Of a DNA stretch of 36,223 nucleotides, positions 980 to 21,722 are shown piece after piece. The stretch lies in the UHGV virus genome UHGV-0136979; one strand, written 5' to 3'. The translations under genes were made by a program, and so were the position numbers. A model generated the notes under the pieces. It saw only the letters and a list, made by a program, of their open reading frames with translations, made no database searches and was not told the origin of the DNA. Each line of letters opens with the position of its first letter. The first letter of the stretch is position 1. The DNA comes from a virus.

Positions 980-1240
980 TTAATTCTGAGGTAAAGGTAA
1001 GCTCATCTGATTGTTTCCCCTGTGTGAAGCTGGTAGCTCATGCCACGGGATACCTTCTGAAGAGTGAACGCCGGAGGCGTGTTTCGATGTGAATTTATGG
1101 AAAGCTTCCAGTGTTGAGAAGCATACGCCGCATTCCAGGTTGTTACACTGATAATACTTTTGCCGGACGGTGTTTGAATCATTTTCCGGGCGACTGGTGC
1201 GGATACGGGCAGACGCGCCACAAAGCGGACAACGAAACAT
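980..1240 (-). CDS. ogr: Ogr-type zinc-finger late transcription activator
   Basis: N-terminus MFRCPLCGASARIRTSR...YYQCNNLEC is the P2 Ogr/Delta Cys4 zinc-finger signature; position at the prophage end next to D is as in P2. The 86-aa track ORF is longer than P2 Ogr (about 72 aa), so the C-terminus is less certain. Confidence 0.85.
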   Translation of the reverse strand: MFRCPLCGASARIRTSRPENDSNTVRQKYYQCNNLECGVCFSTLEAFHKFTSKHASGVHSSEGIPWHELPASHRGNNQMSLPLPQN

Positions 1241-1597
1241 AGCAACCTCCCTTAATGTGGTGCTGTCGCTATTTTAAATTGTATTCGCAAATATGCAAAC
1301 TGACCGTCAGGTCAGTTTGAGGAACGGGCGTTTAATCATTAATAAAAATGTTCTCTGATGTTATTTATTATCTTGCCATTGTCAAATGATGATCTAATGA
1401 CTAATTATAACAAAAGAGTCTGTACATTATTTATATGTTTTGATAACTAGGTGTTTTTATATATTTATAGATTTAAAATATCATATAAAAATGTGTGTTA
1501 TAAAATCATCTGGTTTGAGTGAAAGGGCAGGAGGTGGATTTTTTCTGCCCTTTAATAATATAGTGCTAATGGAAACAATATCTATATACGAGTTATT

Positions 1598-2356
1598 CTA
1601 CTCTCTGTAAAATTCTGCGTGTAAAATTGAGGCCAGTGCTGATGGGTTTTCCCATGACATGGAATGTCCTGCTTTTGGCACTATTGCAACAGATATTCCT
1701 GATTCTTTTATATGCTGGAAATCATTGTCTGGCAATGATTGTTCGCCGAAAATTAGTGTACGTGAACAGGGCAGATTAAGGAAGATATCTCTCCATGATG
1801 GAGTGGCTCCATCAACCAGACTTTTGGCTCCTCGCCATATTGCCCATGGGGCTGCATTCTGGAGTTCACCTTTCCATGGGGATGTCTCTTGCTCCAGTAA
1901 TTCATCGTATATGTGTGAGATAAACTCTGCTTCTGGTTTCTCTATTATCTTACGACTATATGTACCTCCACCAGAGTGAAAATTAGGTTCAGAAACTACA
2001 AGCTTTCTTGTTCGTTCATGTAGTTGTCTGGCTACTTCAATCGCAATACTTCCTCCCATACTGTGACCATAAATATGGAACTGTGAGAGATTTAATGTTT
2101 CTACTACTTCAATAACAACTTTAGCTTGATGGGATATGCTGTAATCGAATCTTTTAGGCTTATCACTAAACCCATATCCAGGGAGATCTATCAATATTGC
2201 TCGTTGTCCACCAAATGCAGGGTCTGCAACAACCCGTGGATATTCATAAGAAGAAGAACAGCCAAGCCCATGAATAAAAATAACAGGAATACCCTGACCA
2301 GGTAAATCATGCCAACGTACATTTGCTCCGGCAATTAAAGAAAACAAACTGAACAT
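1598..2356 (-). CDS. alpha/beta-fold hydrolase (esterase-like; BioH/YbfF-like by eye), cargo gene
   Basis: 252 aa; HGLG oxyanion region, GHSMGG nucleophile elbow and C-terminal AGHSMSWENP histidine region; AT-rich flanks (1241..1597, 2357..2482) contrast with the phage backbone. Confidence 0.8.
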   Translation of the reverse strand: MFSLFSLIAGANVRWHDLPGQGIPVIFIHGLGCSSSYEYPRVVADPAFGGQRAILIDLPGYGFSDKPKRFDYSISHQAKVVIEVVETLNLSQFHIYGHSMGGSIAIEVARQLHERTRKLVVSEPNFHSGGGTYSRKIIEKPEAEFISHIYDELLEQETSPWKGELQNAAPWAIWRGAKSLVDGATPSWRDIFLNLPCSRTLIFGEQSLPDNDFQHIKESGISVAIVPKAGHSMSWENPSALASILHAEFYRE

Positions 2357-2482
2357 AATATGTACCTTTGCTTTTTCTTACAGGTATAACCTGTAACTCT
2401 GACTGTAAAGGATCTTCTATCCTTGTTCTTGCCTCGCTGTATCCAGAGAGTTTTTGTATATTAAATTAAACACCGAAGTTGC

Positions 2483-3592
2483 TCACTCTGTTTCTGCTAT
2501 CCATTCCGGGATTTTTGCTTCAAGCTCAAGCTGCGTGGTAAAACCGCTGTTATCAATGGTGTGCTCGGCTTTTGCAATAATCCAGTCCTGATTATCAATC
2601 TCGCTTTTAAATCCTGTTACCGTGCCATGCATTTCGGGGTAGAGTTCTGCGCGTCCGCGTGCCAGTGTGATGGAGAATGATGCGGCTCCGCGTTGTAGCT
2701 GCTGCCACTTTGCCGCCGCTGCGCGTCTTGCTGCCTGCTCGTTCTGATAAGTCTTGCGTAACACAAACACATTGCCTTCCGCACCTTCCATATAATCACC
2801 TTCACGGCTGCTGCTTTTCTCCTTTTTGGGTTTTGGCGGTTTGCGGCGTTTCACGCTGACTTTTTTCTTTTTCCCGTAATTAAGATCAAGCCAGTAAGCG
2901 CGTACCCCCGTATACGCTTCGCGGTCAGCAATGCGGAACTGATGTCGATCGCCACTGCTGCGCGTGATGGCGAACGAGGGCAACGGCTGGCCCTGCGCGT
3001 TCACGCCACCGCCTGGCATGATGAATAACAGATTACCGCTTTTTACCGTGGTGATTGCGCCCAGCATTTCCGCCATGCGCGTAAGGAAGGACATGTCGCT
3101 TTCTTCAGTCTGGTCGGCGTGGTCGATTTCGATATCCATCAGCATTTCGCTGATTTGCGGTTTCAGACCGTACCGATGAGCGATGGCGGATACCACGCGC
3201 TCAACGGTCACATCATGCCAGGACACTTCACGTTTAACGTTAAATTCATCCCGAAAATCTGCGCTTCTGGCTGAAACAGTCAGCCTGTCCGGCGGTCCTT
3301 CGTGTGCGATTTCATCAACAATGTAAGAGCCTTTTTCTGTCAGCGGTTCTCCTTTCCAGCCAATGAGAACCGTCAGGCGCGCGCCCCGTGGCGGTAGCTG
3401 CAACTGACCATCCGCATCATCCAGCGTGATGGTGAGCTGGTCCGCTTCAAATCCCCGGTTGTCGGTCAGTGACAGACTCATCAGGCGCTCTGCCACGCCG
3501 GACAGCCTTTTCCCCTCCGCGAGAATATCAAAATCCGGCATTTTCACGGGGTCTGTGCTTTGACTGAGCAATTGCATGGTGGTGTCGGTCAT
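2483..3592 (-). CDS. D: tail protein D (late control gene D family)
   Basis: 369 aa (P2 gpD is about 387 aa); lysine-rich central linker; strong RBS GGGAGGGA upstream of the ATG at 3592. Recognised by resemblance to gpD. Confidence 0.85.
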   Translation of the reverse strand: MTDTTMQLLSQSTDPVKMPDFDILAEGKRLSGVAERLMSLSLTDNRGFEADQLTITLDDADGQLQLPPRGARLTVLIGWKGEPLTEKGSYIVDEIAHEGPPDRLTVSARSADFRDEFNVKREVSWHDVTVERVVSAIAHRYGLKPQISEMLMDIEIDHADQTEESDMSFLTRMAEMLGAITTVKSGNLLFIMPGGGVNAQGQPLPSFAITRSSGDRHQFRIADREAYTGVRAYWLDLNYGKKKKVSVKRRKPPKPKKEKSSSREGDYMEGAEGNVFVLRKTYQNEQAARRAAAAKWQQLQRGAASFSITLARGRAELYPEMHGTVTGFKSEIDNQDWIIAKAEHTIDNSGFTTQLELEAKIPEWIAETE

Positions 3593-3748
3593 TCGTCCCT
3601 CCCTGTGCGGTATGGTCGCATGTGCGCACGGAGTGGGTTACTGCTTTTTGTTGTCGCCGTGGCGGGAGAACGGCGCAGGGGTGAGATTACGCGCGTGGTG
3701 GGTGATGATTGTTGCCGAATCATTTAACGGATACAAGGGGCTGAAGCT
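3593..3748. promoter_or_regulatory. divergent intergenic region between D (-) and FI (+); presumed late promoter region
   Basis: 156 bp separating two divergently oriented late genes, each with its own RBS; no clean TGT-N12-ACA Ogr box was found by eye. Confidence 0.35.
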
Positions 3749-4933
3749 ATGAGTGAAACTCGTTTTCATGGTGCCCGTGTTACGGAAAATACCGACCTGG
3801 TAACAGCGATTAACGATGTTGATTCCAGCGTTATCGGTATCGTGGCAACGGCGGATGATGCGGACGCGAAGCTGTTCCCGCTGAACAAGCCCACACTGCT
3901 GACCCGCGTCAATGACGTGCTGGGAAAATGCGGGACAACGGGGACGCTTTATCGTGCGCTTAAGGCCATCGCTGACCAGGTGAGCACAAAGGTGATCGTC
4001 GTTCGCGTGGCTGAACACAAAGAAGAAGACGGAAAGACGCAGGATCAACTGGTTATCGGTGGTTCTGAGGATGACGGCAGCTATACGGGGATGTATGCGC
4101 TGCTTGTTGCAGAGCAGGATGAAAGCATCGGATACCGTCCGCGTATTCTGGCCGCGCCGGAGCTGGACACGGAGGCGGTGACAAAATCCCTGTGCGTGAT
4201 TGCGGGTAAACTGCGCGCGTTTGTGTATGCCACATGTCATGGTTGTAACACGATGGCTGAGGCGATTACCTACCGCCAGAAATTCAACGAACGTGAGGTG
4301 ATGCTCTTATGGCCGGACTTCATCGCCTACAACCCGAAAAGTGGCAAAAACGAAACGTTCCCCGCGCCTGCCTATGCGTGCGGCCTTCGTGCGTACATTG
4401 ACCATGAGCAGGGCTGGCACAAATCACTGTCCAACGTTCCGGTTAAAAATGTGCTGGGGATGTCGAGGCATGTGTTCTGGTCGTTGCAGGCCGAAGACAG
4501 CGATGCCAACAGCCTCAACAACAAAGAAATCACGACCATTATTCGTCGCAACGGGTTCCGCTTCTGGGGCAACCGCACACCGGAAACGAACGCCTACATC
4601 TTTGAGGTGTATACCCGAACCGCACAGGTGCTGGCTGATTCAATTGCGGAAGCGCAGTTTGAAACCATCGACAGTCCACTGACGCCTGCGAACGTGAAGG
4701 ATGTTATCAGTGCCATCAGGGCAAAACTGGATTCACTGGTTACTGCCGGGAAACTGATTGGTGCGGAGTGCTGGTATGACGTGGTGGATAACGGCACCAC
4801 GAATTTACGTCAGGGACGTGTGCGTATTCGCTACAAATATACGCCTGTTCCCCCGCTGGAAGACATGGAGCTTTACCAGTCGTTTACTGATGAATTCTTT
4901 GGTCCCGCATTTGCGGTGCTGGGAGGTGCCTGA
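3749..4933 (+). CDS. FI: contractile tail sheath protein FI
   Basis: 394 aa (P2 FI is about 396 aa); N-terminal region resembles P2 FI (ADDADA..FPLNKP); immediately followed by the tube gene. Confidence 0.9.
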   Translation: MSETRFHGARVTENTDLVTAINDVDSSVIGIVATADDADAKLFPLNKPTLLTRVNDVLGKCGTTGTLYRALKAIADQVSTKVIVVRVAEHKEEDGKTQDQLVIGGSEDDGSYTGMYALLVAEQDESIGYRPRILAAPELDTEAVTKSLCVIAGKLRAFVYATCHGCNTMAEAITYRQKFNEREVMLLWPDFIAYNPKSGKNETFPAPAYACGLRAYIDHEQGWHKSLSNVPVKNVLGMSRHVFWSLQAEDSDANSLNNKEITTIIRRNGFRFWGNRTPETNAYIFEVYTRTAQVLADSIAEAQFETIDSPLTPANVKDVISAIRAKLDSLVTAGKLIGAECWYDVVDNGTTNLRQGRVRIRYKYTPVPPLEDMELYQSFTDEFFGPAFAVLGGA

Positions 4934-5445
4934 TGGCTGTACCAAAACATCTTCGCTTTTTTACGTTGTTTGTGGATGGTGAAAACGAAGTGGGTAAAGT
5001 GACATCCGTCACGCCGCCCAAACTGACGCGCAAAACCGACAGTTATCGTGGTGGTGGCATGATGGGGGCGGTAAGTATTGATCTCGGTCTGGACGACTCC
5101 GCGCTTGATGCGAGTTTTGTCATGGGGGGAGCTGTTCGTGCGCTGTTCCTTAAATATGGCGGCACGATTGACGGCACGCTGCTGCGTTTTGCGGGTGAAT
5201 ACTACACCGATGCAGAAAGCGATCTGTATGAAATCGAGATGCGCGGGCGTGTGACGGAAATTGATATGGGGGAAGCCAAACAGGGCGAAGCCACATCACA
5301 CACTTACGCTGTCAAAAACACCTACTACAAGCTGAGCGTTAACGATCGCCCGCTGTGGGAAATCGACCTGTTGAACCACATCTACCGGAAGGACGGCAAG
5401 GACATTGTGCCTGACCGTATCCGTTCCGCGCTCGGGCTTGGCTGA
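4933..5445 (+). CDS. FII: tail tube protein FII
   Basis: 170 aa (P2 FII is 172 aa); start overlaps the FI stop. Confidence 0.9.
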   Translation: MAVPKHLRFFTLFVDGENEVGKVTSVTPPKLTRKTDSYRGGGMMGAVSIDLGLDDSALDASFVMGGAVRALFLKYGGTIDGTLLRFAGEYYTDAESDLYEIEMRGRVTEIDMGEAKQGEATSHTYAVKNTYYKLSVNDRPLWEIDLLNHIYRKDGKDIVPDRIRSALGLG

Positions 5446-5500
5446 TAAGTAATATGCAGGCGGCACAGTGCGTCGCCTCTGACTGAAAAGGAGACAACTG

Positions 5501-5875
5501 ATGAAAGACATCGATACTGAAACCCGGAATAACACCGTGGCGGATGATGTGACGGCAGGTGAGGATATGGCTGTCGAACGTGGTGTAAAACTTTCCCGGC
5601 CAATTGAGCGTGGTGGCGAAAAAATCACGTATGTGGAGATCACAGGGGCTATTGAGCAGGCTGGATCCCTGCGTGGTCTGTCGCTGTCTGATGTGCTGAA
5701 TCTGAAAGCGGATACCATGTTCACGCTGTTGCCTCGCGTGACCTCGCCACGACTGGATGAAGTGATGATTAAAAAAATGTCGTCACGCGATTTTATTCAG
5801 TTGTGCGCTGCGGCTGTAAATTTTATGAGCGAGCCAGACTCTGGCGCGAAGAGCGTGCAGGAGACGGCAGCGTAA
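5501..5875 (+). CDS. E: tail assembly chaperone E (zero-frame product)
   Basis: Small ORF between tube and tape-measure genes; overlapped by a -1 frame ORF (E'), the conserved arrangement in P2-like phages. Confidence 0.7.
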   Translation: MKDIDTETRNNTVADDVTAGEDMAVERGVKLSRPIERGGEKITYVEITGAIEQAGSLRGLSLSDVLNLKADTMFTLLPRVTSPRLDEVMIKKMSSRDFIQLCAAAVNFMSEPDSGAKSVQETAA

Positions 5876-6039
5876 TCACCCTGGTGTGCTTTGAGCACAT
5901 CGAAGATCTGGTGGCGGATATTGCCGCCATTTTTAACTGGTCGCCCGCCGAAATCTTCATGATGACGCCCGGCGAAGTGGTTAGCTGGCGTGAGCGGGCG
6001 GCACTTCGCAGCGGGAATGCAGACAATGAAGACTCTTGA
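5776..6039 (+). CDS. E': E' extension of the E+E' fusion, reached by programmed -1 frameshift
   Basis: The -1 frame is open from 5773 (after TAA at 5770..5772) to the TGA at 6037..6039; an A7 run at 5771..5777 is the only slippery tract in the overlap; the E portion up to the tract is about 92 aa, matching P2 gpE (91 aa). Confidence 0.5.
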   Translation, partial: NVVTRFYSVVRCGCKFYERARLWREERAGDGSVITLVCFEHIEDLVADIAAIFNWSPAEIFMMTPGEVVSWRERAALRSGNADNEDS

Positions 6040-8833
6040 TATCCGGGTCGCTTTCAGCGCCGTTGACAGGCTGACCCGGCCTGCCGAAAACGCCCGCCGC
6101 CTGATGGGGCAGTTTGGTGACTCCATCCAGCGAACGCAGGGGGCGATCAAAAATCTCGAGCGTCAGGCGCGTTCATTTGAGCGCGCCCGCGACGCTGTCA
6201 GTAAAGCGGATGCGGGCATCGTGAAAGCACGACGCCAGCTTAACGCCCTTAATCAGTTACAACGCACGGGTACAGTGCTCAGCGAAAAACAACAAAAGCT
6301 GATGCAGCAGTTAAGCACCCGGCTTGAACGCCTGAATGAATCGCGCACACGGGAAATTCAGAAAATGCGGGAACTTGGCGGAGAACTGAAACGCCACGGC
6401 ATTTCCCTGACAGGCAGCGATAACACCATTCAGCAGGCCATCAGACGTACCGAACAGTACAACAACCAGCTTGAACGCGAACGGCAGGCGCTTGCGCGTG
6501 TAACGCGGGCGCGTGAGCGGTATTCGCGCGCGCAGGAAACAGCGGGAAAACTGAAAACAGGTGGTGCACTGGCAATTGGTGCGGCAGCGGCGGGCGGCTA
6601 TGCTGCCGGGCGTTTTTTGCAGCCTGCGATCGGGTTCGGCAAAGAGATGTCCCGCGTTCAGGCACTGACGCGAATCGACCAGAACAGCCCGCAGTTTAAG
6701 GCGCTGCGTGAGCAGGCGTTAAAACTTGGCTCTGAAACACAGTTTACTGCGAGTGATGCCGCCAGTGGGCAGAGCTTTCTGGCAATGGCTGGTTTTACTC
6801 CGCAGGCCATTCAGGCCGCATTGCCCGGTGTTCTTAATATGGCGCTGGCAGGTGGCGTCGAACTCGGCGAGACGGCTGATATAGGCTCCAATATCCTCAC
6901 ACAGTTCAACCTGACAGCCGATCAAATGGACCGGGTTGGCGATACGCTGACAGCGGCATTCACCCGGACCAATACTGATTTACGCGCGCTGGGCGAAACC
7001 ATGAAGTATACCGGTCCGGTTGCCGCAAAACTTGGTATCAGTCTTGAAGAAGCGGCAGCCATGGCCGGGATGCTTGCCAATAATGGTCTTCGCGGAAGCG
7101 ATGCTGGTACGGCCATGCGCGCAAGTCTGTCCCGCCTTGCATCACCGCCAAAAGCTGCGGCTGATGCGCTGAAAGAGCTGGGAGTGTCAGTTGCTGACGC
7201 CAGAGGCAAAATGCGCCCGATGGAGGATGTGCTGCTTGATCTCTATAAGGCGACACAAAAATACGGACAGGTGGACCAGGTTTCCTTCTTCAAGGACATC
7301 GCCGGAGAAGAGGCGTTCGTTGGTTTGCAGACGCTTGTTGCGGCGGCTGGTTCAGGAGAGCTGCAAAAACTGACCAGAGAATTGCAGGGGGCAAGGGGAG
7401 AGGCCGATCGCGTTGCAAAAGTAATGGCCGATAATCTTGATGGGGACCTGAAAAATCTCGACAGCGCATGGGAAGGTCTTCGTATTCGCATCAGTGATCT
7501 GGTTGACGGTCCGCTGCGTTCTGTCACGCAGTGGCTCACGCGGGTGCTTGAAAAAATCACCTCGCTGGCGCAGGCCCATCCGGTACTGACGCGCCAGCTA
7601 CTGATAGCAGGCGGTGCGTTGCTGGCAATGACTGCAACGATTGGCTCGTTGTCGCTGGTTATTGGGGTGCTTTACGGGAAGCTGGCCACCTTGCGTCTTG
7701 GTTTCGACATTCTTACCCGGTCAATGAATGTCATCAGGGTGTTGCCTGCGCTGTGGGGAATGGTGACGGGTTCTGTTTCTTTGCTGGGAGGCGCTATCGG
7801 GGCGCTGTTCAGTCCGGTTGGTCTTATCGTGGCTGCGCTTGCCGGAGCTGCCGTTCTTATCTGGAAATACTGGGATCCCATCAGGGTATTTTTTGCCGGG
7901 GTGTTCAGCGGGATTATGGAACGGCTGGCTCCGTTGCGCGAAACCTTTGAACGGTTTGGCCCTGTTTTTGACGCAATCGGAAGCGGGATCAGCCAGGTGT
8001 TTAACTGGTTTAAATCGCTGCTGTCACCGATGGAGTCCAGCAAGGAAACGCTGGATAAATGTACCAGTGCTGGCGAGATATTCGGTAACGTTCTTGGCGG
8101 TGCGTTACAGCTTGTTCTGACACCTGCAAAAATGCTACTGGATACGCTGGCGTGGATACTTGAAAAACTTGGCGTCCTTCCGGATGAAGCGGAAAGGGCG
8201 CGCAAGAAAATCGAAGACGCACAGCGTGCAGCCATTCTTCAGGACAAGGTTGCCTTGCTTCAGGGGGACCTGGCGAAAATCAATCCGCCGAAGCCTGTGG
8301 AAAATGGCAATGGCACCGGAGGTGATAAACCCAAAGACAACAAACCGCTCACAGACAGCAATACCGGGACGCTACGCAGACTCAGCAAAATTGCTGATAA
8401 CACAGGTAAGCTGGTTGATGAGACGAAAAAACGCATTGGCCCCGGCGATATTGTCTTTAAGAACCTGCCCCGCGCACTTGCTGTTCGTGGGGAGTGGCAG
8501 GAGCGGAAGATTGCGCATGTCAGTAAGCCTGCCCCCGCAATTAATATCACACCCGTGGTCCCGGCTCCGCTGCCTCCGGCGCTGGTCCCTGTTGTTGCGG
8601 CCAGCTCCCGCCCGGTGGCGGAGGCTATACGATCTCCAGTGGCATCAGTTCCTGTAACTTCCCGTAACCGGGAGCCTGTTGCCTCCGGATTTGGTGGTGA
8701 AATTCATGTTCATCTGCATAACGTTGTTACGCAGAATCCCCGCGAACTGGCGAAACTGGTCGGTGAAATGGTCAGGGCAGAAATGGAACGGCGCGCCCGT
8801 GCCGGGCGTGGCAGTTTTTACGATAAAGATTGA
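5990..8833 (+). CDS. T: tail tape measure protein T
   Basis: 947 aa, coiled-coil N-terminus, Gly/Ala-rich hydrophobic central segments, located after E/E'. Track start is GTG at 5990; ATG at 6017 or 6026 are alternatives. Confidence 0.9.
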   Translation: MSGRHFAAGMQTMKTLDIRVAFSAVDRLTRPAENARRLMGQFGDSIQRTQGAIKNLERQARSFERARDAVSKADAGIVKARRQLNALNQLQRTGTVLSEKQQKLMQQLSTRLERLNESRTREIQKMRELGGELKRHGISLTGSDNTIQQAIRRTEQYNNQLERERQALARVTRARERYSRAQETAGKLKTGGALAIGAAAAGGYAAGRFLQPAIGFGKEMSRVQALTRIDQNSPQFKALREQALKLGSETQFTASDAASGQSFLAMAGFTPQAIQAALPGVLNMALAGGVELGETADIGSNILTQFNLTADQMDRVGDTLTAAFTRTNTDLRALGETMKYTGPVAAKLGISLEEAAAMAGMLANNGLRGSDAGTAMRASLSRLASPPKAAADALKELGVSVADARGKMRPMEDVLLDLYKATQKYGQVDQVSFFKDIAGEEAFVGLQTLVAAAGSGELQKLTRELQGARGEADRVAKVMADNLDGDLKNLDSAWEGLRIRISDLVDGPLRSVTQWLTRVLEKITSLAQAHPVLTRQLLIAGGALLAMTATIGSLSLVIGVLYGKLATLRLGFDILTRSMNVIRVLPALWGMVTGSVSLLGGAIGALFSPVGLIVAALAGAAVLIWKYWDPIRVFFAGVFSGIMERLAPLRETFERFGPVFDAIGSGISQVFNWFKSLLSPMESSKETLDKCTSAGEIFGNVLGGALQLVLTPAKMLLDTLAWILEKLGVLPDEAERARKKIEDAQRAAILQDKVALLQGDLAKINPPKPVENGNGTGGDKPKDNKPLTDSNTGTLRRLSKIADNTGKLVDETKKRIGPGDIVFKNLPRALAVRGEWQERKIAHVSKPAPAINITPVVPAPLPPALVPVVAASSRPVAEAIRSPVASVPVTSRNREPVASGFGGEIHVHLHNVVTQNPRELAKLVGEMVRAEMERRARAGRGSFYDKD

Positions 8834-8839
8834 GGAGTC

Positions 8840-9334
8840 ATGGCCATGATGATGATCTACGGCATGTTTGTTTTTGAGCTGCGCACGCTGCCGCATCAGC
8901 AGTTACAGCAAAACAAAAGCTGGCGGCATGTGAAAAATGAACGCGTTAACCGTTCAGCAAGCTGGCAGTATATCGGTGCAGGTGATGATCGCATCGTTCT
9001 TTCTGGTGTGCTTTATCCTGAAATTACAGGTGGCGAAGTGTCGCTGTCGCTGCTGACCACGCAGGCGTATACAGGACGCCCCTGGCCTCTTATTGATGGC
9101 GTCGGGCAGATTTACGGCATGTATGTCCTGACCGAAACGAATACGACCCGTTCCGAGTTTGATCGCTACGGTAAGGCGAAAAAGATAGAATTTTCACTGA
9201 CCCTTGAACGCTGTGATGAGGATTTGCGGGAGCGCCTGCAATCCTCATCGTTCAGCGATATGCTGTCCGGCTTCAAAGATAAAGTGACATCATCCCTTAA
9301 CAGCGCGGCCAGTTCAGTTAAAGGGCTGTTCTGA
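8840..9334 (+). CDS. U: tail protein U
   Basis: 164 aa (P2 gpU is 159 aa); GAGGAG RBS; directly follows T. Confidence 0.85.
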   Translation: MAMMMIYGMFVFELRTLPHQQLQQNKSWRHVKNERVNRSASWQYIGAGDDRIVLSGVLYPEITGGEVSLSLLTTQAYTGRPWPLIDGVGQIYGMYVLTETNTTRSEFDRYGKAKKIEFSLTLERCDEDLRERLQSSSFSDMLSGFKDKVTSSLNSAASSVKGLF

Positions 9335-9341
9335 TTTAATG

Positions 9342-9381
9342 CTGGCCACTCATACCCTCATACCTGGTAATAAGTGGCCAG
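9342..9381. repeat. inverted repeat (9-bp arms CTGGCCACT / AGTGGCCAG, 22-nt spacer) just after U
   Basis: Read directly from the sequence; lies in the right-hand junction of the inverted tail block; could be a terminator-like structure. Confidence 0.5.
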
Positions 9382-9504
9382 TCTTAACACTCACCATTTG
9401 ATTGCACCAGTGTTAACGATTTGTTACTGGACATCAGACACGCTGGATAGCCAGTAGAAACATACCATTAAAATTATTACAATAATTGGTCACATGATTA
9501 TCTT

Positions 9505-10068
9505 ATGCTGAATAATAGAGATATGAATATTAATGAACTTAAAGATTGTATTCACTATGAAGTAATCGGTAGCGAGCGTCCTTTCTCCTGGCGAAAGGCA
9601 ATTGTTCGCGCAATAAAACATAGAAGAGTTCGTTATTTATTTTGGTGGCGCATAGCCAAATACCTTTTTGATAAAGGCGGATACTGTCGGAAGATTGCGG
9701 GGAAAATAGAACGTTTCATTCTTGATAAATATAATGTAACAGTCCCTTTAACTGTAAATATAGGGAAAGGCTTTGATATTTCTTATCTCAACAGTGTTGT
9801 TATCGGTCACAAAGTAACAATCGGTGAAAATTGTTCAATAAAACCAGGGGTAACTATTGGGCTGCGTGGTGATTTTAATGATATGGATATTGTTATAGGA
9901 CATAATGTGACCATTGGTTGTAATGCCACCATTCTTGGTGGCAAAGTGCGTATAGGAAACAATGTCACAATAGGTGCTCATGCATTGGTATTGCATGATA
10001 TTCCTGATGATTCAACATTCATCACTAAATTTCAGTCTGAAGTTATCTGCTCGTCCTCCCGCACATAA
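9505..10068 (+). CDS. hexapeptide-repeat (left-handed beta-helix) acyltransferase, cargo gene in the Z/fun position
   Basis: 187 aa with tandem [LIV]-G-x4 hexapeptide repeats ([22 protein letters not shown]...[33 protein letters not shown]); markedly AT-rich; 3' end overlaps G convergently by 37 nt. Confidence 0.75.
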
Positions 10069-10649
10069 CCCTGATTCATCAGCTCTGGCCATACGATATC
10101 CGGAGCTGTACTGGTGTCAATTCTACTCACTAATACTCTGTATTTTCTCCAGGAATCCAGTTGTGAATTTTCCTCGTTTGTTGCTATTTCAAGATTAACT
10201 GCATCCTGCAGAATTGCGATGTTATCTGTTGCTTCCTGGATCAACCTTGCCTTTTTCTCTTCCGCTTCCCGTATCCGAAACAGTTTTTCTGCTTCCTCAT
10301 CCTTCACCCAGGATACGCCGTCCCACTTCTGATACTCCCCTGCTGGCGACAACCAGGTGACATTCTCTGGTAGCGGTCCGGGTTCAGAAATAAACAACGC
10401 GTCCCCCGATGCCACGTCATAGACCGTTTTACCACGATGGTCTTCAACAATATTCCACGATTCATTTTCACTGTTAAAAACTGCCACAAAGCCAGCAGGA
10501 ATTTCCGGTGGGGCGATATCTGTAGAATTAGCTGGCAGCCCTGTATGAGGTGGAATATATGCGTCACCTTCACCAATAAACTCATTAGTTCCGGCCAGCA
10601 GGTTATAAATTTTTACAGTACGTGATTGTTTGCTCATTCTGAATGCCAT
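10032..10649 (-). CDS. G: tail fibre assembly protein G
   Basis: 205 aa directly after H; ATG at 10649 overlaps the H stop (TAATG). Confidence 0.8.
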
Positions 10650-13306
10650 TATGCAAGCCTCACAATATAATTAAATGCGATGTTTTTAACGGTGTTTTCC
10701 GCGTTACCAGCAGCGTTAACGGTGATGGTGTGTCCATGTGAACCAATCGCAACAGAGTGCGTATGAGCGCCAATACCAACAGTGTGTGCATGTGCCCCAG
10801 CACTTGTAGCGGTACCTGATACTGAGTGGGTATGTGCGCCAGAAGAAGGCACAGTTCCATTCCCCACCACCGTGCCACTTGATGCACCATCCAGCCAGTC
10901 GAAATTCATACCGCCACTGTTTGGTCTCCTTAATGGAACGGTATGAGTATGTGCGCCAGCACTATTTGCAGTACCAGATACATTGTGGGTATGTGCACCT
11001 GTGTTATTCGTTGATTTAGTACCGTAATCAAACGACGATGTGGTTTTCGTACCCAAATCCGTACTGGATGCGCTGGCACTGTGGGTGTGCGATTTAATGC
11101 CGTCCTGTTCCAGAGACAATACGGCCCGACCACTGGCGGGTTTGCCCTTGATTGTCCAGCCACGCATATCCGGGATCACGCCTGACGGATAAGCGACTGC
11201 AAGTTTCGGGTATGCAGATTTATCAAAAGTCTGTCCCTGCATCAGGGCGTAACCAGACGGCACAGTATCTGATGGCCACGGCAGCGGAACACCTGGCGGA
11301 AACGCTTCAATATTTGCCGAGCCGTCAAATTTTACGCCGTTAATTGTCCTTGCCGTTTTCAGCTTTGTTGCTGTAGCAGCATTGCCGGATAGTTCGCCTG
11401 AAAGACCACCGCTGAATGTCTGTTTCGCCGCCCATGTCTGAGCTTCGTCGATAATTGGCACACGTCTTGTCGTAATCGTGCGGCTTCCCGGATTTCCTGA
11501 AATGCGAACCATAAAAAAGCGGTAATTCGCTTTACTTACAGTGCTGCGCCATACATGCATTGAGCGCCCCGTACCGGAATCATCACTCGGACCAACTGCG
11601 ATGTTTATCAGGTTGCCATCAATGACGCCCCAGTCCATACCGTCGGGAATATTGGTCATGTTATCAAGCCGAACGGTTATCAGACTGCCCGGCACAAAAT
11701 CGTAGGTCTGCCAGTCCAGGCTGGTGAGTTTTGCCACTGCGCCACCGATCCCCATATTCAGGGGCAACGAAAAGGAGTTATACACTTCTCGCCATTCGGT
11801 CCATGTGCTCCCGGCGTAGACGCGCTCAAAAGTGCGCCCCTGTGTGGTTTCTGATTTCCCTGTGGTTGTGTAACGCTGCCAGACAGATACACCATCAAAA
11901 CGCCTGATTACTTCCAGTATCCCAAGCAATGTCGCCCCAGCAGCGTCCAGCATCGGACCGTTTGTCGCCTTTCCTGTAACACTGTAAATACCGGGGTCGG
12001 TTAGAACATTCAAATCACCTTCGTAATAACGGCTCTCTGACTGATGACCGACTCTTAACCACGGTTCCCACTGCGGATTTGATGCATCCCAGCTTGCCGC
12101 AAGGCAGCGAACGTACATATTCCCACGACGAGTGGTATAACGTTGCGTTCTTCCATAATTCCCGCCTTCGAGGATCTCAAGCGTCCCCTGAGCAAAGCCG
12201 CCTTCCTCTGGATAATTGCGTTCATATGAAGCTATAGCCGAGCTACTGTTACGCCATAAACCAAGATGCTCAGCGGCTCCAAGCGTATTCAGGTCTATAG
12301 TCGTACTCAAAGGGCGGGTAGCTGATTGAGTGTGACGCCATACGCCCCACGGACCATCAGTGCCATTCCACTTATTGGCGAGTTTACGCATGTATACATT
12401 GCCGTCTCTCGTGATAAAACGTTGCGTGCCTGCAAAATTGCCAGCTGCAAAAACCTCAAGCACACCGACAGCATTATCTTCCGGGAAATTTTTCTCCAGT
12501 GTTGCGTTGGTGGATGTTGCTTTAGACCAGATGCCAAGATAAGCCTTAACGGGACCAAATGTATTCAGGTCGGCATCAAGCGGCATTTCGCCATTATTTT
12601 TCATAAACGTCAGGCTGGTAACGCCAACATTGCCCAGAAAAGCGCCCTTATCTGGAATATCGTCACCGTTCTGGTCTTTCTGCAGACGTTTCTCAGCATT
12701 GTCATAGGCTGCTTTTACTGCCTTTGGCGTTGCCGCCAGCTTTTCACTGGTGCTGTTTGTTGCACTGCTTAACTGGGTAAAACCTTTTTCTGTCAGCGTG
12801 GCGTCAGGATGGCGGCGGGATTGCTCATGCTCTGCGATTTTGTCATCGACGTAATCCTGCGTCGCCATCACTGTGCTGGCATCAATACTCAGCTCAACGG
12901 ACGCCACGTTGCTGACAATAATAACCATGCGGCAGGTCTGCGCGCGCCCGGAGCCTTCAGCGAGTTCAGGTTTATAGCTTTCCGCCATGTTAGCGACCGC
13001 AATCAGTGTTCCGGCATCGTCATACAGACCCAGCTCACGCATCCAGAAGCCGCCCACTTCTGGCGGTACAACCAGTTCAGCCACGATATAGTTTTTATTC
13101 TTGTTATCCACGCTGACTTTATTCAGAGCGTGACGCCAGACCTCATGCACCAGTTTCGTCTGACCGGCATCCGGCACCGGCAATTTGCCATTACCGTCAC
13201 CCACGGCCATTGCAGACAGAGTTACTTTTTTCCCGCCGGGGACAGTGGCGGCTGCCAGCTTCGCGGCTCCGGCAGTAGTGATAACGGTTTTAAATTTCGT
13301 GCTCAT
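10649..13306 (-). CDS. H: tail fibre protein H
   Basis: 885 aa; conserved N-terminal region of P2/Mu-type fibres; C-terminal repeated GAHTH / HxH motifs typical of tail-fibre tip domains. Confidence 0.9.
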
Positions 13307-14736: not shown

Positions 14737-15087
14737 TTACTCCCTCAGCGTGATGGTTAATTCAACATTCTGCATGGTCTGCATGACAGTGCCCGACAGC
14801 GTCACCCCGGCGCGGCCTCCCGCTTTCCAGACAACGTCGATGGCATCCAGGGCAATGCGGGGTTCCCATCGTGTCAGCGCAATCACGGCAGCACTCATGC
14901 ATTGCAGACGCGTGGTGTTATTCATGGGTTCGTCAATCAAATCAGGCACAAGGCTGCCATATTCCCGTCGCATAACCCGGCTTGCCAGCGGGGTGGTCAG
15001 GATGTCCCTGACTGACTGTTTCAGGTGCTCCATATCGTTCAGGTTTCCCGTTCCGTCCGGGTTCATTCCTGTGTAGCGGGTTGTCAC
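14737..15087 (-). CDS. W: baseplate protein W (gp25-like)
   Basis: 116 aa (P2 gpW is 115 aa); synteny V-W-J. Confidence 0.85.
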   Translation of the reverse strand: MTTRYTGMNPDGTGNLNDMEHLKQSVRDILTTPLASRVMRREYGSLVPDLIDEPMNNTTRLQCMSAAVIALTRWEPRIALDAIDVVWKAGGRAGVTLSGTVMQTMQNVELTITLRE

Positions 15088-15665
15088 TGCGGGCCTCCTG
15101 TCGAATCGCTGCCACCTTTCACGCCACCGTGTTTATGCGTATGCACGGTAATGCCGTTTGAGGTGAAATTGCCGCCGCTGTGCGTGATATTGCCGCTCAT
15201 CTTTCCCCCTTTTGTGACGTCAAGCGTCGCCGTTCTCAGAAGGTTTGTGCATTCCACGACGGGCGTATCCAGTGTCACGCTGACGGATGCCTGCAGGGTG
15301 GCTGTTTTCATGCCGCTGGCGCTCAGTGCGCCTGCGTCCGCGTCGTAGCGGAACACCGCGCCATCCGGCGCGCTGACCACGATTTCTTTCAGGCTTTTGC
15401 CGGGGGCCGGACTGGCATCACTCCACAGGCTGCCAATTATCATGGCGGTTTCCGGGTTGCCGCCAATGCAGGCAATTACCACCTGTTCGCCTGGTGATGG
15501 CGGCAGCCACACATTGAAGGCTCCCGCGCGCGTGGTGTTCCAGCGCAGCCAGCCTGTTTCCAGTTCGCCGCTGCGAACGCGCACGCGCCAGGACTTCTCA
15601 TCAACTTCAGAGATGATCCCGGTGCGGATGATATTGCTCAGCAGTCGCATGAGTTCTGCGCTCAC
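15084..15665 (-). CDS. V: baseplate spike protein V
   Basis: 193 aa; position and size fit P2 gpV; 4-nt overlap with W. Confidence 0.85.
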   Translation of the reverse strand: MSAELMRLLSNIIRTGIISEVDEKSWRVRVRSGELETGWLRWNTTRAGAFNVWLPPSPGEQVVIACIGGNPETAMIIGSLWSDASPAPGKSLKEIVVSAPDGAVFRYDADAGALSASGMKTATLQASVSVTLDTPVVECTNLLRTATLDVTKGGKMSGNITHSGGNFTSNGITVHTHKHGGVKGGSDSTGGPQ

Positions 15666-16306
15666 CGTACAGCCTCCGCAATCCGGCCCAGCACCGTGTT
15701 ATAAATCAGGCGTTCATCTGCCTGACTGATGCCCAACAGCTCACGTACCGGGTAATCGGTGAAAATGCCCGGCGCAACCTGATCGCGCTCACCGAACTGA
15801 TGAACGCGTGCAATACGTGCGGCCACGCCGCTGTAACCCACCGTCACACCGGAAGCATCCGCACGGGCTTTCAGGTAGCGGGCGGTGCGCAGTTTTACGA
15901 ACATGGGGACGCGCTTTGTGCTGTCCTGGTTGATGCGCCGGGTGCGTATTTCCAGAAAGCGGTCGATGTCATCCCGGTAAAACGTGCGGATGCTGTTTTT
16001 ATCCTCATCCCACCCGGTGATGGTTCGCCCGTATTTCCCCGTGTCGTGATGCCAGTTTTTCAGCGTGCGTGCTTCGTTATTCCAGATAAAGCGAATACGC
16101 TCCTGTATCCGGGTTACGCGGCGTCTGCGTGGTGTCCATGCAGTCCCGTCCGGCGCTTTCTGTGACCGGATACGTGCCTGCTGGGCGCGACGTAAATCCT
16201 GTGCCAGCTTTCTGGCGATGTTATTGATGGCCTGCTGATTCAGGCTGTCGCGGATAGCCTCAAAGGTTTCATCCACGCGGGTGAATGCCTTATCCATCGC
16301 TTTCAC
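15662..16306 (-). CDS. virion morphogenesis / tail completion protein (S-position)
   Basis: 214 aa in the P2 gpS position between R and V; longer than P2 gpS (150 aa), so called by position and general resemblance only. Confidence 0.7.
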   Translation of the reverse strand: MKAMDKAFTRVDETFEAIRDSLNQQAINNIARKLAQDLRRAQQARIRSQKAPDGTAWTPRRRRVTRIQERIRFIWNNEARTLKNWHHDTGKYGRTITGWDEDKNSIRTFYRDDIDRFLEIRTRRINQDSTKRVPMFVKLRTARYLKARADASGVTVGYSGVAARIARVHQFGERDQVAPGIFTDYPVRELLGISQADERLIYNTVLGRIAEAVR

Positions 16307-16757
16307 CCCACGTCACATCCTGGAATACATGCGACCAGTCGCCTTCGGAAGATGGCAGACGGGGTTTTGGCTCCGGCAGGTGTTCTGCCTGCGGTGTCCC
16401 CTGACTGCTGCGCGTGATGCGAACGCGTTCCCGCAGAGGGAGCGTAAACAGGAGATCGGCGCTGTCATCGTCATTGATAACGGCGGAGAATTTGATGTCC
16501 TGATTACGCTCCGGATTGAGCAACAATTGCGGCTGATTTTCGGATAACCACGCCAGTAGCGGCAGCGTGAGGTCGTCCAGCTCCCCGGCGTAATCCATGA
16601 CAAACATCACCATCTGATAGCGGTAAACAAACGAGGGCGTTTCTCCGGTCGTTTCAATGTTGCCGCTCTCCACGAAAATGGTGAATTTTTCCGGGTTGGC
16701 CTGACACCATCGGCATGAACGGGTCATGGCTTCACGCAGGGAATCAGTTTTCAGCAT
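16290..16757 (-). CDS. R: tail completion protein R
   Basis: 155 aa, the same length as P2 gpR; synteny after the lysis genes. Confidence 0.8.
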   Translation of the reverse strand: MLKTDSLREAMTRSCRWCQANPEKFTIFVESGNIETTGETPSFVYRYQMVMFVMDYAGELDDLTLPLLAWLSENQPQLLLNPERNQDIKFSAVINDDDSADLLFTLPLRERVRITRSSQGTPQAEHLPEPKPRLPSSEGDWSHVFQDVTWGESDG

Positions 16758-17302: not shown

Positions 17303-17691
17303 GCCGGATAGGCTCCGTGTGGTAACTGAAAATGTGGTCCGTCTTTCAGTGTCTTCCAGTCGCCGCCCCATTCCACCGGAATATTCAGTTCCCGGCTGGC
17401 CTGTCTGAATGCTGCTGCGATTTTTTCGTACAGCGGCCATTCCCATGACACCTGGCTGCCGATATAAGCCACAACATCCACGGCATGCCCCGTAAGGTGG
17501 CGGCTGTTCATGGTCTGGCTCTTACCCGTGGCCACCAGTTGCTTCTGGCGGTAACGGCTGCGCAACCCTTCGGTGATACCAAAATCCACTTCCGAGATTT
17601 CCAGTGCCCGTCGGGTCACTTTCACCAGATCAGGATTTACGCCCTGCAAATTCTTTTCGCTCCGGCTGCTGAATTTAAATGTGTTGCTCAT
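17299..17691 (-). CDS. endolysin, peptidase M15-like
   Basis: 130 aa with HLTGHAVD and DGPHFQL motifs resembling the His..Asp..His zinc site of M15 peptidases; sits between holin and spanins. Confidence 0.7.
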   Translation of the reverse strand: MSNTFKFSSRSEKNLQGVNPDLVKVTRRALEISEVDFGITEGLRSRYRQKQLVATGKSQTMNSRHLTGHAVDVVAYIGSQVSWEWPLYEKIAAAFRQASRELNIPVEWGGDWKTLKDGPHFQLPHGAYPA

Positions 17692-18214: not shown

Positions 18215-18717
18215 CAGCACAACTCCGCAAAGATTCGCGGGCGGCACAGAATGTCAGAGATGGCCCAGCTCACATCGCGCCACAAATCCGATGTCTGTAT
18301 ATCCAGTGCGTCCGCCCGGCGGTCGCCCTTGTCCGTTGTGTCCGCATCGCGGTAACGCTCCAGAATCAGGGCGCGTGTGGCGGTGTAAACCGCATTGCGC
18401 CAGTGCCAGAGATTGACGCTTTCTCCGTTAATTACGGGTGCCGGAACATCGGCCAGCGTCTGATGGCCAGCCGCCTGCTGTTCCTGCTGCCACGCTTCCA
18501 GCTCGCGGGTAACGTGTGCCACGGCCCCGGTGGCGGTATGCAGCAGGCGGGAGGTGGTCACACGGCCCGGCAGTCGTACCGCCAGACGCAGTTCACGCAG
18601 CACAATATCCGGCCAGAATGCACCCGCTGAAATACGGGTATCACCATCATCGGTATCGGTGATGTCGTCCTCTGCGGGTCCGGGGTTGGTTCTGGCAACC
18701 ATACTCATGGGGTTCAC
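18214..18717 (-). CDS. L: head completion/stabilisation protein L
   Basis: 167 aa (P2 gpL is 169 aa); synteny M-L-X. Confidence 0.85.
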   Translation of the reverse strand: MNPMSMVARTNPGPAEDDITDTDDGDTRISAGAFWPDIVLRELRLAVRLPGRVTTSRLLHTATGAVAHVTRELEAWQQEQQAAGHQTLADVPAPVINGESVNLWHWRNAVYTATRALILERYRDADTTDKGDRRADALDIQTSDLWRDVSWAISDILCRPRIFAELC

Positions 18718-21601: not shown

Positions 21602-21722
21602 GATGGCAAAGCGTAACAGGCTGATACAAAGGGCTTTTGTTGTAAGAAAACGGCCAGAACAGGGGGGTAAGGAGAACGGTTTCGCGCGCGGGTAATCTTC
21701 CTGTAATTACTCAGGGGGAGCA
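21602..21722. promoter_or_regulatory. divergent late promoter region between O (-) and P (+)
   Basis: 121-bp intergenic region between divergent late operons as in P2; only an imperfect TGT-N12-AGA dyad seen near 21641..21658. Confidence 0.4.

Follow-up and report, generated by a model that had tools for sequence, protein, structure and literature searches.

The window, a stretch of 36,223 nucleotides presented as virus genome UHGV-0136979, is a complete P2-like prophage with a Peduoviridae tail and late module, in which FI, FII, E, T, U and D each have a homologue and an Ogr/Delta zinc-finger activator is encoded. Gene identities and strands, assigned via PHROGs, Pfam and tblastn with P2 proteins, revealed that the genes from FI to U (3749-9334) lie on the + strand, as opposed to D, ogr and G-H-I-J-W-V on the - strand, such that G and H, with I, J, W and V beyond H, converge on the F block. 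The sign of the GC skew flips at ~3500 and ~10000, in keeping with these strand switches.

Table 1. Genes, predicted regulatory elements and cargo around the D-FI junction, with a comparator dyad elsewhere in the window.
Feature	Position	Strand	Evidence or remark
ogr (ogr/delta-type late activator, 86 aa)	980-1240	-	Pfam PF04606 Ogr_Delta E 5e-14; 41.5% identity to P2 Ogr
Sigma-70-like promoter match, directly upstream of ogr	1299-1271	-	
Low-GC cargo island between ogr and D	1282-2475	-	GC 0.31-0.42
Alpha/beta-hydrolase gene in the ogr-D island	1598-2356	-	Pfam Abhydrolase_1 E 4e-21
D (baseplate hub / late control D)	2483-3592	-	PHROG 52 E 9e-166; Pfam Phage_GPD; 48% identity to gpD of P2 (tblastn)
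D-FI spacer	3593-3748		Exactly 156 bp, divergent
Predicted pD core	3612-3629	-	GC box GTGCGCAC 3622-3629; -10-like GACCAT 3612-3617
Ogr-type activator dyad GTTGT-N12-AGAAC	3650-3671		Centre 3660.5
Predicted pF core	3681-3709	+	GTGAGAT 3681-3687; -10-like GATGAT 3704-3709
FI, tail sheath	3749-4933	+	PHROG 23 E 1e-124; 45% identity to P2 FI
FII, tail tube	4933-5445	+	PHROG 55 E 1e-58; 42% identity to P2 FII
E, tail assembly chaperone (E/E' region)	5501-5875	+	PHROG 103 E 1e-36; 35% identity to P2 E
T, tape measure protein (uncertain start codon)	5990-8833	+	PHROG 28 E 2e-218; 33% identity to P2 T
U, tail protein, final gene of the inverted block	8840-9334	+	Pfam Phage_P2_GpU E 6e-39; 46% identity to P2 U
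Hairpin directly after U, start of the variable cargo region	9340-9382	+	Inverted repeat I17
Hexapeptide-repeat acyl/acetyltransferase cargo gene, Z/fun-equivalent position	9505-10068	+	Pfam Hexapep E 1e-12
G, tail fibre assembly	10032-10649	-	PHROG 105
H, tail fibre	10649-13306	-	N-terminus 85% identical to P2 H
Comparator dyad GTTGT-N12-AGAAC, divergent O-P spacer	21639-21660		

The canonical P2 order, in which FI through U and D form one operon on the strand of V through G, was not found in the window. The P2 record NC_001895 places V-W-J-I-H-G, FI-FII-E-T-U-D and ogr on a single strand, with U overlapping D, and the late genes of Fels-2 and phiCTX are likewise collinear, which bears out the P2 orientation on which the original prediction was based. 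Because P2 has all of these genes on one strand, the FI-FII-E-T-U block is truly inverted here, as had been proposed, and FI does diverge from D across the spacer. Since D and FI diverge, the F operon cannot end in D, and the proposed uncoupling of D from that operon therefore stands.

Low-GC cargo adjoins the D-to-U block at both ends. Between ogr and D, the window stops being homologous with P88, PhiR44_2 and a Salmonella prophage at 1281 and matches them again from 2476. Beyond U, the hexapeptide transferase gene (GC 0.36-0.40) overlaps the 3' end of G by 37 bp, and the exact junction at this cargo gene was found in 134 complete E. coli genomes. U had been described as facing this cargo gene, which is wrong, as the gene is codirectional with U and convergent with G. 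The hairpin between them (MFE -22.5 kcal/mol, z -4.4) was matched in stability by 0 of 200 shuffles and is a possible terminator.

Evaluating relatives, we found the divergent D/FI junction in the Xuanwuvirus phages P88, PhiR44_2, 500465-2, P884B11 and Citrobacter phage Shae_phiSM, all of which, together with a Salmonella prophage, align with the conserved block from D through U (2476-9339) in a single piece at 91-96% identity; phage 520873 is collinear with the window from D through U in the same way. Strands in these phages are as in the window, with D on -, FI-FII-E-E'-T-U on + and G-H-I-J-W-V on -, and the annotations of P88 and PhiR44_2 likewise have FI through U converging on G/H. The flanks differ: after U, P88 carries a DNA invertase and an alternative tail-fibre segment and PhiR44_2 almost nothing, whereas the window carries the acetyltransferase there and the hydrolase island between D and ogr. 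The ICTV genus criterion is ~70% nucleotide identity over the full length; nucleotide identity to P88 is 93% over 2476-9339 and 97% over 1-1280, for these parts only, with the tail-fibre and cargo segments differing. Classification by tblastn agrees, in that the divergent D/FI junction seen in Xuanwuvirus is present in the window. The identical divergent order also occurs in the Reginaelenavirus Klebsiella phage 3LV2017, which belongs to another genus and is only ~67% identical to the junction probe at the DNA level, but whose 153-bp spacer has its dyad in the same place, there as a perfect TGT-N12-ACA.

The arrangement is also common among bacterial genomes. With a 956-bp probe, counted where collinear over at least 80% of its length, the inverted D-FI junction was carried by 1356 of 5426 complete E. 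coli genomes (about a quarter), and the junction was collinear in 1358 of 1386 matching records. Inverted prophages among the sampled loci span more than 20 genera of Enterobacterales. Across 78 classifiable loci, arrangement followed relatedness, such that every D at least 61% identical to that of the window was in an inverted locus and every D at most 54% identical was in a canonical one. The original prediction had allowed that the same order in independent assemblies of relatives would make it a lineage trait, and that is what two ICTV genera, the E. coli genomes and 50 prophage loci show; the unusualness that it implied was not supported. It had also named an assembly artefact as an alternative, in which the block was flipped through misassembly at the two junctions. 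Only the departure from P2 speaks for such an error, which is ruled out for practical purposes by the identical junction in independently sequenced isolated phages, complete E. coli genomes and prophages of other genera, and the junctions hold no repeats able to mislead an assembler. The flipped block from the sheath gene to gpU is thus the normal, ancient and fixed order in P88, Xuanwuvirus and their relatives, which makes the arrangement unremarkable in this prophage rather than an error of assembly.

A second way to account for the orientation is a recent or reversible inversion by a site-specific invertase of the Gin/Cin/Hin tail-fibre switch type. In P88 the DNA invertase gene directly adjoins the U end and Fels-2 has one beside FI, and with invertases at this cargo position an enzyme acting on pseudo-sites could have caused the original event. 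The window, however, carries the hexapeptide transferase at that position and no invertase. Nor do inverted-repeat crossover sites join the junctions, in agreement with the absence of common inverted repeats noted originally: exact inverted matches between them reach 8 nt at most, 79 of 200 shuffles gave 8 nt or more, and none of the 25 longest inverted-repeat pairs connects the two junctions. Only one orientation is seen, in 1358 of the 1386 matching E. coli records and in 50 of 50 clade members, and the block is therefore fixed rather than switching, which makes a recent or reversible flip highly improbable. A recombination scar of the inversion event was not found. The D N-terminus and the U C-terminus were considered as breakpoint scars and set aside, since these termini vary in both arrangement types and are therefore uninformative about breakpoints.

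Phylogenetic analysis placed all 50 inverted loci in one exclusive clade with no canonical member inside, in simple neighbor-joining trees of D and FI that were rooted on phiCTX, carried no support values, and sampled Enterobacterales plus one outgroup. Such exclusivity indicates, as far as these sequence trees go, a single old inversion that has since been fixed. Module replacement, in which an F block from another P2-like lineage was inserted in reverse without inversion in situ, is an alternative origin that draws on the mosaicism of P2-like phages and on the cargo and recombination hotspots next to both ends of the D-to-U block; the tail-fibre region is itself mosaic, with I at 68% and the H N-terminus at 85% identity to P2, where most other late genes have 33-55%. 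These two and S (26%) are the outliers in a late gene set shared with P2 (Peduovirus), Fels-2 and phiCTX at 26-85% overall, and the 33-55% range holds on either side of the breakpoints, which speaks against the module being foreign. Divergence from P2 is on a par for FI, FII, E, T and U (33-46% identity) and for D, V, W, J, N, P and Q (42-55%). Further against replacement, the tree of D, outside the block, and that of FI, inside it, recover the same exclusive clade. We regard replacement as improbable, if somewhat less so than a switching invertase, and consider it very probable that this is a P88-type (Xuanwuvirus-like) prophage in which FI through U, together with pF, was inverted once in the common ancestor of a large Enterobacterales peduovirus clade and then fixed. 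Under this single inversion, the first breakpoint would have fallen at the Z/fun cargo position, immediately ahead of pF, and the second at the U/D boundary; FI through U would then form a five-gene late operon convergent with the O...G late genes at the cargo hotspot, with D, and ogr downstream, as a separate leftward unit.

The D-FI spacer provides a candidate promoter region for D. Its dyad resembles P2 pF (GTTGT-N12-CCAAC), P2 pP/pO and the window's own O-P spacer, and its core, TGT-N12-AGA at 3652-3669, departs by one mismatch (AGA for ACA) from the Ogr-type consensus TGT-N12-ACA. PMC3931495 gives this consensus and describes a single shared PP'/PO' site in phage Smp131. In late promoters that depend on Ogr or Delta, such a dyad is expected to be centred ~55 nt upstream of the start. 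Exact TGT-N12-ACA occurs 7 times in the window against 8.6 expected by chance, and in neither the D-FI nor the O-P spacer, while the extended form GTTGT-N14-AAC has 4 matches where chance would give 1.4, and two of these fall in the divergent D-FI and O-P spacers. Across the inverted clade, spacers are 140-164 bp long with a single dyad each, and TGT-N12-ACA with at most one mismatch was present in 43 of 46. The dyad centre lies 88 nt from the FI ATG in the window (clade range 78-88, median 82), compared with 82.5 nt in P2 and 79-85 nt in canonical loci; towards the D ATG, its distance in the clade is 55-82 nt, with a median of 71.

On the FI side, GTGAG/GTGAT and GATNAT elements are positionally conserved in the clade alignment, and the predicted pF, starting at ~3716-3717, agrees in geometry with P2 pF, which has a mapped start at 17626. 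On the D side, 32 of 45 inverted loci carry a CGCGCG/GCGCGC box at a distance of 27-36 nt from the centre of the dyad. The box is degenerate in the window (GTGCGCAC) and is not present on the equivalent strand in 20 canonical pF regions; the -10-like elements there are weak consensus matches but occupy the same alignment columns as those on the FI side. Alignment by dyad centre puts the predicted pD start at ~3604-3605, with a predicted D leader of only ~13 nt. The P side of the window's O-P spacer, with CGCGCGCG and TAATCT, has the same layout as this D side. A generic sigma-70 scan of the D-FI spacer gave nothing convincing, as expected for activator-dependent late promoters. Conservation between related sequences such as these may overstate functional constraint.

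A single dyad with a conserved D-side CGCGCG box and -10-like element at matching distance suggests that the spacer is a bidirectional late promoter, pD/pF, like P2 pP/pO, where divergent late genes ~150 bp apart flank one dyad-symmetric site roughly midway; the annotated P2 activator site is shared, with its centre 55.5 nt from each start site. The P2 pair is experimentally mapped according to its annotation, whereas pD and pF here are read from sequence only. D would accordingly be transcribed from a late promoter sharing one Ogr-type dyad with pF, and the spacer would fire in both directions in an activator-dependent manner from the two predicted starts. D could instead be under an independent promoter, constitutive or with a separate activator site. 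The weakness of the D-side -10-like elements, a dyad-to-D distance more variable than that to FI and a CGCGCG box without an established role all fit that alternative, but each spacer has only one dyad, the elements on its two sides are equidistant from it and the layout mirrors pP/pO, which share one site; we therefore consider independence unlikely, though with an appreciable chance of being right. Returning to the shared dyad, the broader proposal is that regulatory exaptation rendered the inversion viable, with the Ogr dyad of pF also driving a divergent D core promoter. The inversion would then be a clade-defining character, found as it is in two or more ICTV genera and in prophages of over 20 enterobacterial genera. 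We judge the chances of this proposal to be even. If it holds, the pP/pO design would have been recreated and the classical F operon split into two co-regulated units.

The gene order itself can be read from the annotations of P88-like phages. A description of the inversion was not found in the literature on P88, on global P2-like diversity or on C. rodentium prophages, nor in a hotspot preprint, a Xenorhabdus tailocin paper or an ST131 preprint. Xenorhabdicin xnp1 was considered as a described example and rejected, as its sheath gene adjoins the tail-fibre variable region, the canonical arrangement.

For annotation, these observations mean that P2-like prophages in which the genes from sheath to U are flipped need not be flagged as misassembled, and that the flip reliably marks the P88/Xuanwuvirus-Reginaelenavirus clade. 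For P2 biology, they show that the classical F operon can vary and that the inversion makes late transcription converge at the cargo hotspot. The D-FI spacer also offers a natural test case, at a second locus, for the use of one Ogr-binding dyad by two divergent promoters.

Tblastn with all P2 proteins, together with PHROGs and Pfam scans, revealed that the 36 kb window is a complete P2-like prophage running in reverse of the conventional P2 map, with H followed by I, J, W, V, S, R and onward to O (-), then P and Q (+), A and cox (-), and C and int (+). In the annotated P2 record V-W-J-I-H-G, FI-FII-E-E'-T-U-D and ogr all share one strand and U overlaps D, whereas here FI to U lie opposite to D, ogr and V to G. 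The original prediction was therefore right about the flipped orientation of the tail block compared with P2 and about the separation of D from the F operon, but not in reading this as an anomaly, since it is a fixed lineage trait. Nor does U face the cargo gene at the Z/fun position, as had been proposed; that gene shares U's direction of transcription and is convergent with G. GC skew changes sign at ~3500 and ~10000, as the strand switches predict. Separately, at 15084-16757 the genes R, S, V and W abut or overlap one another, and S meets V without intervening sequence. This lineage seems to have neither the separate pV promoter nor the orf30 insertion found between S and V in P2.

Features around the inverted block, with amino-acid identity to P2 for D and the block genes
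Feature	Position	Strand	Identity to P2 (%)	Remark
ogr	980-1240	-		late activator
alpha/beta-hydrolase	1598-2356	-		cargo
D	2483-3592	-	48	
D-FI spacer	3593-3748			156 bp
D-FI dyad	3650-3671			GTTGT-N12-AGAAC, sole dyad in spacer
FI	3749-4933	+	45	
FII	4933-5445	+	42	
E	5501-5875	+	35	
T	5990-8833	+	33	
U	8840-9334	+	46	
Hairpin after U	9340-9382			-22.5 kcal/mol, z -4.4
Hexapeptide acetyltransferase	9505-10068	+		cargo
G	10032-10649	-		
H	10649-13306	-		
O-P dyad	21639-21660			GTTGT-N12-AGAAC, same form

Comparison of window 1500-12500 with deposited phages by megablast showed that 2476-9339, spanning whole D to whole U with the divergent junction, aligns as a single collinear piece with Xuanwuvirus-type phages (P88, PhiR44_2, 500465-2, 520873, P884B11 and Citrobacter phage Shae_phiSM; 91-96% identity). 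Annotated strands in PhiR44_2 and P88 (genus Xuanwuvirus) are identical to the window's, and FI to U and D are arranged likewise in Klebsiella phage 3LV2017 (genus Reginaelenavirus). A 956-bp probe with the D-FI spacer at its centre matched 1386 records; in 1358 of them, belonging to 1356 of 5426 complete E. coli genomes, at least 80% of the probe length was collinear. The exact U/acetyltransferase/G junction occurred in 134 complete genomes. Independent relatives thus share the arrangement, which the original prediction had named as the mark of a lineage trait. Both an assembly artefact and a switchable inversion are excluded as explanations, and the inverted block is a fixed trait of the lineage rather than a peculiarity of the window.

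A D-protein alignment, run against a single genome from each bacterial species, yielded 80 loci, which were classified with their 10-kb flanks by tblastn with window and P2 tail proteins. In every locus whose D reached 61% identity or more to that of the window, FI to U lay opposite D, and V-W-J-I shared its strand (hosts: Salmonella, Trabulsiella, Symbiopectobacterium, Edwardsiella, Serratia, Erwinia, Enterobacter, Pantoea, Citrobacter, Kosakonia, Pectobacterium, Izhakiella, Brenneria, Klebsiella, Xenorhabdus, Providencia, Dryocola, Photorhabdus, Rouxiella, Hafnia, Morganella and Yersinia), and at 54% or less the order was canonical and collinear wherever FI was detectable. Canonical order is also seen in Fels-2 and in phiCTX, a distant phage of Pseudomonas, so that order is ancestral. 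Neighbor-joining trees of D and FI, rooted with phiCTX, placed the 50 inverted loci in one exclusive clade without canonical members. Tblastn identity to P2 was 33-55% for most late genes, inside the block and outside it (V 47, W 44, J 55, N 42, P 44 and Q 47%), with S lower (26%) and clearly higher values confined to I (68%) and the H N-terminus (85%), owing to tail-fibre mosaicism. Taken together, strand survey, trees and identities indicate a single old in-situ inversion, since fixed, and argue against a foreign module, recurrent inversion events or an orientation switch.

Two surveyed loci of canonical type, in Yersinia sp. HM-2024 (L061) and Yersinia nurmii (L075), have lost most tail genes between baseplate genes and D, running from V-W-J-I directly to U-D and from V-W-J to D, respectively; lacking H, G, FI, FII, E and T, with U noted only in L061, they are probably decayed prophage remnants. 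Locus L005 (NZ_JBQPOM010000071.1) has a D 98% identical to that of the window, an E. coli-type prophage, but its 226-kb contig bears the label of a Firmicute, 'Vagococcus sp. WN89Y', an assembly likely contaminated or mislabelled.

In Xuanwuvirus relatives conservation covers exactly 2476-9339, with homology lost on either side, where GC falls to 0.31-0.42 (0.50-0.59 within the block) and cargo varies: P88 carries a DNA invertase and alternative tail-fibre segment, and PhiR44_2 almost no cargo. A stable hairpin follows U. As originally noted, no inverted repeat beyond chance links the two junctions, and no breakpoint scar is recognisable at the U C-terminus or D N-terminus, since these termini vary in both arrangement types. 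The original inversion could have been caused by an invertase that used pseudo-sites, given that P88 and Fels-2 have an invertase at the cargo position, though this is unsupported here. The ~1.2-kb low-GC (0.31-0.42) island between D and ogr (1282-2475), holding the esterase/lipase-like hydrolase gene, is absent from P88 and PhiR44_2, in the latter of which ogr directly follows D, so the gap between D and ogr looks like a further cargo hotspot; D-ogr spacing also exceeds 1 kb in three surveyed loci (L005, L037 and L040). At the Z/fun-equivalent position, the 3' ends of the hexapeptide-repeat acyl/acetyltransferase gene (GC ~0.36) and of G, the oppositely oriented gene for tail-fibre assembly, overlap by 37 bp, a junction identical in those 134 E. 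coli genomes, and a role in lysogenic conversion, such as surface polysaccharide acetylation, is possible.

In P2, Ogr binds to a TGT-N12-ACA dyad in the late promoters (PMC3931495), and the P2 record annotates a single site for the divergent promoters pP and pO, its centre by our count 55.5 nt from each mapped start. The window's D-FI dyad has one mismatch to this form; P2 pF reads GTTGT-N12-CCAAC. With at most one mismatch, a dyad occurs in 43 of 46 inverted-clade spacers, its centre 78-88 nt (median 82) from the FI ATG and 55-82 nt (median 71) from the D ATG. The FI distance is the same in canonical relatives (79-85 nt; dyad in 21 of 24 loci) and P2 (82.5 nt), so pF, the FI-side late promoter, was carried along intact with the block. 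The extended form GTTGT-N14-AAC has two further, intragenic matches, in the L homologue (18335-18356) and FII (4965-4986), maybe by chance since ~1.4 are expected at random in the window; the former could be an internal late promoter. Two Providencia spacers (L031 and L040) hold a perfect dyad of another half-site at the usual position (GTTCTC-N10-GAGAAC, or TCT-N12-AGA), and the Xuanwuvirus site is a hybrid, TGT-N12-AGA, which suggests co-evolution of half-site specificity with the Ogr homologues.

Aligning spacers by dyad centre revealed conserved GTGAG/GTGAT and GATNAT elements on the FI side. On the D side, 32 of 45 loci have a CGCGCG/GCGCGC box at a distance of 27-36 nt from the centre. 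A -10-like element comes next, in register with its FI-side counterpart. All this conservation is among relatives and hence not independent evidence. In 20 canonical pF regions the corresponding strand lacks the D-side pattern and often has terminator hairpins in its place. The P side of the window's O-P spacer has the same layout (CGCGCGCG and TAATCT). From the dyad position, the conserved elements on both sides and this likeness, we propose that the D-FI spacer may be a bidirectional late promoter with one activator site serving pF and a D-side promoter, pD. Transcription would start at ~3604-3605 (-) for D and ~3716-3717 (+) for FI; the window's own D-side GC box is degenerate and the predicted D leader merely ~13 nt.

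The inverted block itself is already known and ordinary for the lineage, being visible in annotated public records of the classified phages P88 (KP063541/NC_026014) and 3LV2017 and very common in E. coli. The searchable literature held no description of the inversion or its regulatory consequence; rearranged tail operons have been reported in another P2-like phage, Smp131 (PMC3931495). The clade-wide distribution of the inversion and the proposed shared-promoter model are modest additions to knowledge.
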